From: a virus
Lineage: Duplodnaviria; Heunggongvirae; Uroviricota; Caudoviricetes
Reading direction: 5' to 3' (one strand)
Virus record (IMG/VR): IMGVR_UViG_2974654489_000001
Span: 1-44,851 of that record
DNA: 44,851 nt
This document shows positions 5,744 to 6,076 of the stretch, piece by piece. A program made the position numbers and the translations under genes. A model generated the notes under the pieces. That model had not been told where the DNA came from. It saw only the letters and a program-made list of their open reading frames with translations, and ran no database searches. The first letter of the stretch is position 1. Every line of letters starts with the position of its first letter.

Positions 5744-5770
5744 AAAGGCCCCGTTATGGGGCCTTAGTTT
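5744..5770. terminator. Bidirectional intrinsic terminator (GGCCCC-GTTAT-GGGGCC)
   Basis: GC-rich hairpin flanked by A tract upstream and T tract downstream, between convergent genes. Confidence 0.6.
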
Positions 5771-6015
5771 TATCGCACTCTCATAAATAGCTTACCTTTG
5801 CGTTGTAACAAATCCATACCAACCGCACCTTCACCAGATTTGTTTGGGCGACGCATTAAACTAAAGTTCCATACTCTGGCTTTTGAAGCATCTTTCGCAT
5901 TGCACACCCAAAGTCTGCCGCTTTCTCTTAGGTCAAATAAGTCCGATATACTGAAATTATTAACCGGTATGAATCCACTAATGTACTCACTTTCACAACT
6001 AGGTAATTCCTGCAT
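5770..6015 (-). CDS. Hypothetical protein (leftward moron inside head module)
   Basis: 81 aa from ATG 6015 with strong AGGAGG RBS (track ORF extends to 6105); own promoter and terminator; locally AT-rich. Confidence 0.45.
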   Translation of the reverse strand: MQELPSCESEYISGFIPVNNFSISDLFDLRESGRLWVCNAKDASKARVWNFSLMRRPNKSGEGAVGMDLLQRKGKLFMRVR

Positions 6016-6035
6016 ACACCCTCCTCTGTTCGATG

Positions 6036-6076
6036 TAGTGAATAGTACCCTATTATATTGGTGTATGCAAACTGTT
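6036..6076 (-). promoter_or_regulatory. Leftward promoter cassette TTGCAT-N7-TATAAT-AGGGTACTATTCAC with inverted repeat AATAG-N4-CTATT (6041-6054)
   Basis: 25-bp identity with the cassette at 15980-16016; drives gene 5770-6015. Confidence 0.5.

Follow-up and report, generated by a model that had tools for sequence, protein, structure and literature searches.

A small leftward gene carried as an optional cassette between the Hoc-like and Rz genes of a Kagunavirus coliphage

We analyzed a stretch of 44,851 nucleotides (the window, which here always means that stretch at its full length) from a Kagunavirus (Guernseyvirinae) coliphage. A 1.4-kb query around the locus described here matched 298 phage records, the best of which were Escherichia Kagunavirus phages with about 94% identity. 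The local gene order begins with a MuF-like head protein gene, followed by the gene for a Hoc-like decoration protein and, farther to the right, by the Rz/Rz1 spanin genes that precede the scaffold and major capsid genes (Table 1). Between the Hoc-like and Rz genes, an open reading frame (ORF) of 81 codons plus a TAA stop is read in the opposite direction. A mechanical ORF list started this frame farther upstream, at a TTG (position 6105); we preferred the ATG at 6015 to 6013, which is preceded by AGGAGG (6025 to 6020) with a 4-nt spacer. This agrees with an earlier note on the same DNA, made from the letters alone, which had described a single leftward gene with a strong AGGAGG ribosome-binding site in an AT-rich region. 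The gene has a GC content of 40.2% (35% at third codon positions [GC3]), compared to 50.3% for the window and 54 to 56% (GC3, 58 to 68%) for the flanking Hoc-like and Rz genes. The sign of the GC skew reverses across the gene.

Table 1. Features of the locus and related control elements (window coordinates, except where relatives are named)
Feature	Position	Strand	Remarks
MuF-like head protein with ADP-ribosyltransferase domain	3405-5198		Start of the local gene order
Hoc-like decoration protein	5280-5741		Left neighbor of the 81-aa gene
Putative bidirectional intrinsic terminator, hairpin AAGGCCCC-GTTA-GGGGCCTT	5745-5765	both	From terminator scan
81-aa coding sequence, including TAA stop	5770-6015	-	81 codons plus TAA; basic, soluble product
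Shine-Dalgarno AGGAGG	6020-6025	-	4 nt before the ATG; read from the sequence
Putative leftward promoter module of the docking site	6038-6084	-	24 bp identical to 15983-16006; conserved in occupied sites
Candidate promoter of the late leader	TTGACT 6137-6142, TAAGCT 6160-6165		17-nt spacer
Leader terminator, strong (predicted)	6346-6365		Immediately upstream of the Rz ribosome-binding site; leader length, about 180-200 nt
Rz/Rz1 spanins	6390-6885		Right of the 81-aa gene, before the scaffold and major capsid genes
Sister promoter module	15983-16006	-	Precedes the leftward operon 15971->13561
Promoter of the same family	38364-38387	+	Precedes the early small-gene operon (38409->)
Dyads GAATAG-N4-CTATT	6040, 15985, 28483, 32081, 34780, 34826, 38370, 39463, 39836, 42988	both	About 10 promoters
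Portal/MuF dock of relatives	~1882-1914 in L011, L020, L023, L024, L026, L028, L033, L035, L044		

We compared the codons of the gene with those of its homologues. The window copy differs from that of L001 by 12 synonymous and 2 nonsynonymous codon changes, and the L001 and L012 copies differ by 13 synonymous changes and no nonsynonymous change. Against copies with 73% DNA identity, third positions hold 41 of about 64 differences. Judged by this pattern of substitution, the ORF is a genuine gene under purifying selection, because nearly all of the differences between homologues are synonymous and fall at third positions. Lack of conservation had been named earlier as a finding that would count against the gene; the ORF is conserved, and 12 of the 14 codons changed relative to the closest homologues are synonymous.

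Downstream of the stop codon, a terminator scan scored the hairpin at 5745 to 5765 as terminator-like on both strands, in agreement with the bidirectional terminator that had been proposed at 5744 to 5770. An A-tract lies upstream of the hairpin, where the Hoc-like gene has its stop (TGATAAAA), and TTAGTTTT lies downstream. The minus-strand call begins 4 nt past the stop codon of the 81-aa gene, and the region as a whole holds 6 terminator-like sites versus 1.8 expected. By these sequence features, transcription of the Hoc-like gene from the left and of the 81-aa gene from the right is predicted to end at this hairpin.

Upstream, a putative promoter module sits 22 nt from the start codon. It combines a −35-like TTGCAT (6070 to 6065), a 17-nt spacer, and a −10-like TACTAT (6047 to 6042), and it also contains a perfect TATAAT (6057 to 6052), which has no −35 partner, and the dyad GAATAG-N4-CTATT (6040 to 6054). 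TTGCAT-17-TACTAT matches 7 of the 12 σ70 consensus positions, and a simple scan for the σ70 consensus did not call a promoter for the 81-aa gene. Since the scan missed the module, we assigned the putative promoter by its position and conservation instead of by a consensus score: the module recurs, correctly oriented, in front of other genes. One of these copies precedes the operon that starts with an Imm-like gene, and here a 25-bp identity had been claimed. The shared module stood up to scrutiny (0 matches in 100 shuffles), whereas the length did not: the exact identity between 6038 to 6061 and 15983 to 16006 is 24 bp, and when mismatches are allowed, about 31 of 35 bp agree. A palindrome, CTATTCGAATAG, lies at 6125 to 6136, near this control region.

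We examined the equivalent site in 42 genomes, comprising the window, four GenBank phages, and 37 IMG/VR contigs. The site was empty in 9 of them; here, the stop of the Hoc-like gene is followed after only 40 nt by the conserved Rz leader (from window position 6085 onward), and these 40 nt contain a one-directional terminator, GCCCCGAAAGGGGCTTTTT. The remaining 33 sites were occupied, always by leftward cargo, which fell into about 13 alternative sets. The 81-aa gene is the cargo in only 4 of the 42 genomes. Other cargoes include a 67-aa acidic protein, a 114-aa lipoprotein together with a 33-aa membrane peptide, two DNA methyltransferases (one of the Dam class and one N6/N4 enzyme), a 173-aa clamp-like protein, a 179-aa endonuclease VII/HNH-like protein, and several small proteins of unassigned function. 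Whatever the cargo, both junctions are constant. The left one is an A-tract/hairpin/T-tract terminator whose bidirectional form occurs only in occupied sites, and the right one is a promoter module of about 45 bp that is 83 to 97% identical in 33/33 occupied sites and missing from 9/9 empty ones. Because the junctions are the same irrespective of the cargo, the predicted promoter and terminator are, on this comparative evidence, a property of the site, with exchangeable cargo in between. The comparison agrees with the view that the gene is an insert, and the autonomous layout that the earlier note had recognized also holds, as in relatives the promoter module and terminator recur around other leftward cargo, or the site is empty.

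Nine relatives have a second dock, located in the portal/MuF intergenic region, where the promoter module recurs in front of other leftward cargo. It is missing in the window, where this intergenic region (3373 to 3404) is only 32 nt long. The 173-aa and 61-aa cargoes occur in either the portal/MuF or the Hoc/Rz dock. We searched the Kagunavirus, BASEL, and phage-hotspot literature and found no description there of the dock or of the 81-aa family.

This arrangement recalls the morons of lambdoid and HK97-like phages, extra genes that are inserted between genes adjacent in relatives and that have their own promoter and terminator and a deviant composition. The concept is reportedly due to Hendrix and Juhala. 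Alike are the empty site in relatives, the downstream terminator, the lower GC content, and the orientation against the late operon. A putative promoter module likewise lies upstream. Unlike morons, the present gene resides in a virulent siphovirus, so that prophage expression would be absent; the signals belong to the site, about 13 cargoes share the flanks, and the promoter is of the phage's own early type. Kagunavirus genome papers report no lysogeny genes (PMC7203180; PMC9825357), and the benefit of prophage expression to a lysogen probably does not apply here. Hypervariability hotspots or accessory gene islands of phage genomes (e.g., bioRxiv 10.1101/2024.10.15.618418) are similar in their conserved flanks and in their variable cargo of counterdefense-type DNA methyltransferases and unknowns. 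Compared with these hotspots, the dock differs in being very compact, usually with one gene, in its constant expression module, and in being mirrored by at least one further dock with the same promoter (portal/MuF in relatives).

The promoter module belongs to a family that is spread over the phage genome. Its 17-mer core has 6 matches in the window versus 0.04 expected, and the dyad gave 20 strand-matches at about 10 to 11 sites versus 0.58 expected, an approximately 35-fold overrepresentation. Oriented copies precede the 81-aa gene, the leftward operon 15971->13561, the early small-gene operon (38409->), the small-gene group 39881->, a Cro-like helix-turn-helix (HTH) gene (34870->), and leftward replication-side genes. 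Two classes can be distinguished. In the first, which includes the promoter of the 81-aa gene, the elements are TTGCAY-17-TACTAT with the dyad over the −10 element; in the other, they are TTGACA-17/18-TATAGT with the dyad within the spacer. A weaker leftward copy of the core, AATATAATAGGGTCGTA, is present at 43006 to 43022, with no obvious leftward ORF of at least 60 aa downstream. In about 10 promoters, located on both strands, the −10 element or the spacer is overlapped by the dyad, as would be expected of an operator recognized by a single phage regulator. The Cro-like gene, which codes for a 71-aa HTH protein (34870 to 35085), has two dyad copies just upstream.

The same sequence as the module at 6038 to 6061, 15983 to 16006, and their relatives was published for the Kagunavirus fBC-Eco01 as a repeated "phage promoter" motif, tgAATAGTa-ccTATTat-T, found in seven copies by PHIRE (PMC9825357). 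That paper ascribed the motif to a phage-encoded RNA polymerase and does not describe a role for it in driving swappable cargo. A Pfam scan of ten replication- and lysis-region ORFs (171 to 753 aa) detected no RNA polymerase among them, and for this reason the host RNA polymerase is probably used at the dyad promoters. Moreover, the motif overlaps σ70-like hexamers and is a dyad, which makes a host promoter with an overlapping operator likelier than a promoter for a phage polymerase.

The sister module at 15983 to 16006 drives, by its position, a leftward operon inside the tail-gene block. Its first two products are an Imm-like protein of 68 aa (15765 to 15971) and a 376-aa DNA repair exonuclease, and it further encodes a 161-aa polynucleotide kinase and a 184-aa kinase-like protein. 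The polynucleotide kinase suggests nucleic acid repair, possibly against host nucleases. Coregulation of the 81-aa gene with this 13.5- to 16-kb island had been suggested from the common promoter. Sharing of the promoter is supported, but the pairing is too narrow: the island is one of about 10 dyad sites, which include the early operon and the Cro-like gene.

To characterize the product, we combined sequence analysis with structure prediction. The protein has a mass of 9.3 kDa, a pI of 9.5, and a GRAVY score of −0.37, and its sequence contains no hydrophobic segment, signal peptide, or lipobox. An AF2 model reached a pLDDT of 86.5 when two remote homologues were added to the alignment, compared to 59 before. 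The model shows an alpha-beta-alpha-beta-beta-alpha-beta domain with a basic loop between the third strand and the last helix. Within this loop (R-x-P-N-K-S-G, residues 55 to 61), R55, P57, N58, K59, S60, and G61 are invariant across the family down to 33% identity. Searches against Pfam (even at E values of up to 10), PHROGs, and NCBIfam returned no match to the protein; the best E value in PDB sequence searches was 0.36, and Foldseek matched the confident model to no solved fold in the PDB. In BFVD, the matches of the model were weak and to uncharacterized phage proteins. On the basis of the model, we describe the product as a small, soluble protein with an alpha/beta domain; its family is an orphan. 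The earlier note had recognized no motif in it, which agrees with the outcome of the remote homology search: 27 relatives and no relative in Pfam, PHROGs, or the PDB.

One explanation of the gene is that its product is a cytoplasmic exclusion or defense factor that protects the infected cell from other phages, the classic benefit of a moron. The promoter type is common to the operon that starts with the Imm-like "immunity to superinfection" gene, and cargoes of the same site include membrane proteins or a lipoprotein, which are typical of exclusion proteins. A PADLOC search also gave a weak match to the PDC-M02B profile (E = 0.0048, 13.7 bits, 62 residues of a 396-position profile). However, this match was obtained for 6 of 14 family members, with the remote members P0019 and P0020 falling outside it if those six are all close relatives, and at 13.7 bits it is probably due to chance. 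The product resembles T4 Imm-type proteins (PHROG 1039), including that encoded by the window's own 68-aa gene, in being small, in lying against structural genes, and in having the same type of promoter; it differs from them in showing no sequence similarity, no PHROG match, and no membrane segment. Exclusion at the membrane, as by Imm, Sp, Llp, or Cor, is disfavored for a protein that is basic and soluble, lacks a hydrophobic segment, and has no PHROG match. Furthermore, a virulent phage leaves only a short window for exclusion. We therefore regard this explanation as improbable, although somewhat less so than the two alternatives considered below.

A second possibility is that the protein is a nucleic acid-binding regulator of the phage's own expression, acting for instance on the dyad promoters or on the Rz leader. 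It is basic, it has an invariant Arg/Lys-rich loop, and its gene lies beside a divergent control region with palindromes and a structured leader. It also contains a W-N-x-x-x-x-R-R-P stretch with a loose resemblance to the helix-turn region of lambda Xis. Universal occurrence would be expected of a core regulator, yet the family occurs in only a handful of phage records (see below). No HTH, excisionase, or other Pfam family matched at E values of up to 10, and no winged-helix structure was found at a meaningful score; a winged-helix protein of the lambda Xis/excisionase type thus found no support in these searches. In addition, binding of the dyad is more plausibly ascribed to the product of the Cro-like HTH gene, which is itself closely preceded by two dyads. 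A regulatory role is accordingly quite unlikely in our judgment, slightly more so than exclusion.

We then considered how the family is distributed. A first search for homologues yielded 18 proteins. Searching 1.84 billion representatives exhaustively with a profile added only two remote clusters, and a widened profile with a word-indexed search brought the family to 27 proteins in all, among 5.8 billion. At the level of genomes, it is present in 15 of 50,697 phage records and is confined to Guernseyvirinae-like contigs; these records are a minority of the approximately 115 Escherichia and Kagunavirus-named records that have the neighboring leader. Three locations were observed. The first is the Hoc/Rz dock, in the window, E2010, LM08P2, and L012. 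The second is antisense between Rz and scaffold in TS6-like phages, whose 91-aa homologue is 33% identical and has its own TTGACA-17-TATTGT promoter and a terminator. The third is the second position of the early operon in NTEC3, SCS92, 590B, phiSD1, VIPECOMC04, and others.

In the window, position 2 of the early operon (38603 to 38845) is taken by an unrelated 80-aa allele with conserved flanks, as seen by comparison with L005 and L006. We rejected this gene as a paralogue of the 81-aa gene, as the two genes resemble each other only in MEEL and in the 3′ overlap region, which indicates allelic replacement. The C-terminal tail shared by proteins encoded at this position arises by overlap with the next small gene (38802 to 38909). 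The extra tails of the early-operon versions are therefore read-in to the next gene, and residues 1 to 79 would be the functional unit.

In the TS6-like lineage, the site equivalent to the Hoc/Rz dock also has a gene on the opposite strand (L048, 7100 to 7460; L051, 7023 to 7256; L053, 1399 to 1914), coding for 82, 77, or 171 aa. In L048, it has an apparent ribosome-binding site upstream and a hairpin downstream. Since antisense cassettes lie on either side of Rz in this lineage, cassettes flanking Rz on both sides appear to be old in the subfamily.

The scattered distribution over three locations, together with truncated copies (the 48-aa fragment P0027 and a partial, unannotated copy in vB_STM-ZS), might indicate a selfish or hitchhiking passenger that confers no benefit and moves by recombination of the flanks, or a decaying remnant. 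Strong purifying selection across copies at different locations speaks against this, as do residues 55 and 57 to 61, which stay invariant at 33% identity, and the protein has no endonuclease-like features able to drive its spread. Of the explanations discussed here, we give this one the least credence and consider it very improbable.

We favor the explanation that the 81-aa gene is an optional cassette in a fixed dock of a virulent Kagunavirus, most likely transcribed leftward early in infection and coding for a product that may be host directed; taken as a whole, we assign this explanation a probability of roughly 0.7. Its parts differ in strength. The cassette architecture, an optional and selected gene in a dock that provides promoter and terminator, is very highly probable. 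The dock, situated between the Hoc-like gene and the conserved leader of the Rz spanin, scaffold, and capsid genes, would supply the promoter module and the bidirectional terminator, and relatives would swap the cargo, presumably through homologous recombination in the invariable flanking sequences. Early timing is a reasonable expectation, held with less assurance. As the same promoter family also drives the early operon, the 81-aa gene is most likely early and leftward, and in NTEC3, phiSD1, and VIPECOMC04 its homologue occupies the second position of that operon. The RNA sequencing paper on the Guernseyvirinae phage K1B4 (PMC12645636) could not be mapped to the gene. The host RNA polymerase would transcribe the gene independently of the head operon. 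The transcript would end at the shared hairpin, so that no antisense RNA would enter the Hoc-like gene, and the dyad promoters, including this one, would probably be shut off together by a phage DNA-binding protein.

The earlier note had suggested an accessory function in host interaction or exclusion. The host-directed role of the product, be it counterdefense or takeover, we put forward only tentatively, at somewhat less than even odds. The small soluble protein would act in the cytoplasm on a host component by means of the basic R-x-P-N-K-S-G loop. In general searches of Pfam, PHROGs, and PDB sequences and folds, nothing was found that would link it to known anti-defense families such as Ocr, ArdA, Dmd, Ral, and Lar. 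As most of the other cargoes are also of unassigned function, it is from the two methyltransferases and by analogy that we speak of counterdefense. A bolder version holds that the protein is an early-expressed inhibitor of host defense, or of another host function, with a new fold and that the docks of virulent Guernseyvirinae (Hoc/Rz, portal/MuF, Rz/scaffold, and early-operon position 2) form a cargo-exchange system switched by the dyad regulator. This seems to us rather unlikely, at perhaps one chance in four.

In biological terms, the cassette follows a familiar pattern, that of accessory genes gathering in phage hotspots, and the promoter motif has already been published. In practical terms, the dock is a compact natural "plug-in" position in a virulent coliphage of about 44 kb that tolerates at least 13 cargo sets, or none. 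This makes it useful for phage engineering, and its cargoes form a shortlist of candidate host interaction genes. The 81-aa family is one of these, and its invariant motif is easy to mutate.

The noncoding block to the right of the cassette may be more interesting than the cassette itself. Positions 6085 to 6389 are 95 to 99% identical in 175 phage records, including Salmonella phages, a conservation that exceeds that of the surrounding coding DNA. Neither the window nor this leader matched an Rfam family, and when the leader was folded as a single sequence, no significant structure emerged (z = −1.6). Across 80 Guernseyvirinae loci, the leader occurs in four sequence types, all with an invariant CGGAAGGG and a hairpin and with compensatory changes in the stem. 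A long-range stem position is C:G in 8 of 14 distinct aligned sequences and U:A in the other 6. From its sequence, the block resembles a leader that would regulate the late genes in cis, and its layout of promoter, leader, and terminator ahead of these genes recalls the lambda pR′-6S-tR′ region or a cis-regulatory RNA.

At the other end of the local gene order, the MuF-like protein is 597 aa long and carries a C-terminal ADP-ribosyltransferase exoenzyme domain (PF04233 plus PF03496), compared to 347 to 358 aa for MuF in the relatives that we looked at. The DNA coding for the extension is AT rich (35 to 38% GC at 5000 to 5299), and the extension may be a toxin domain delivered with the virion.
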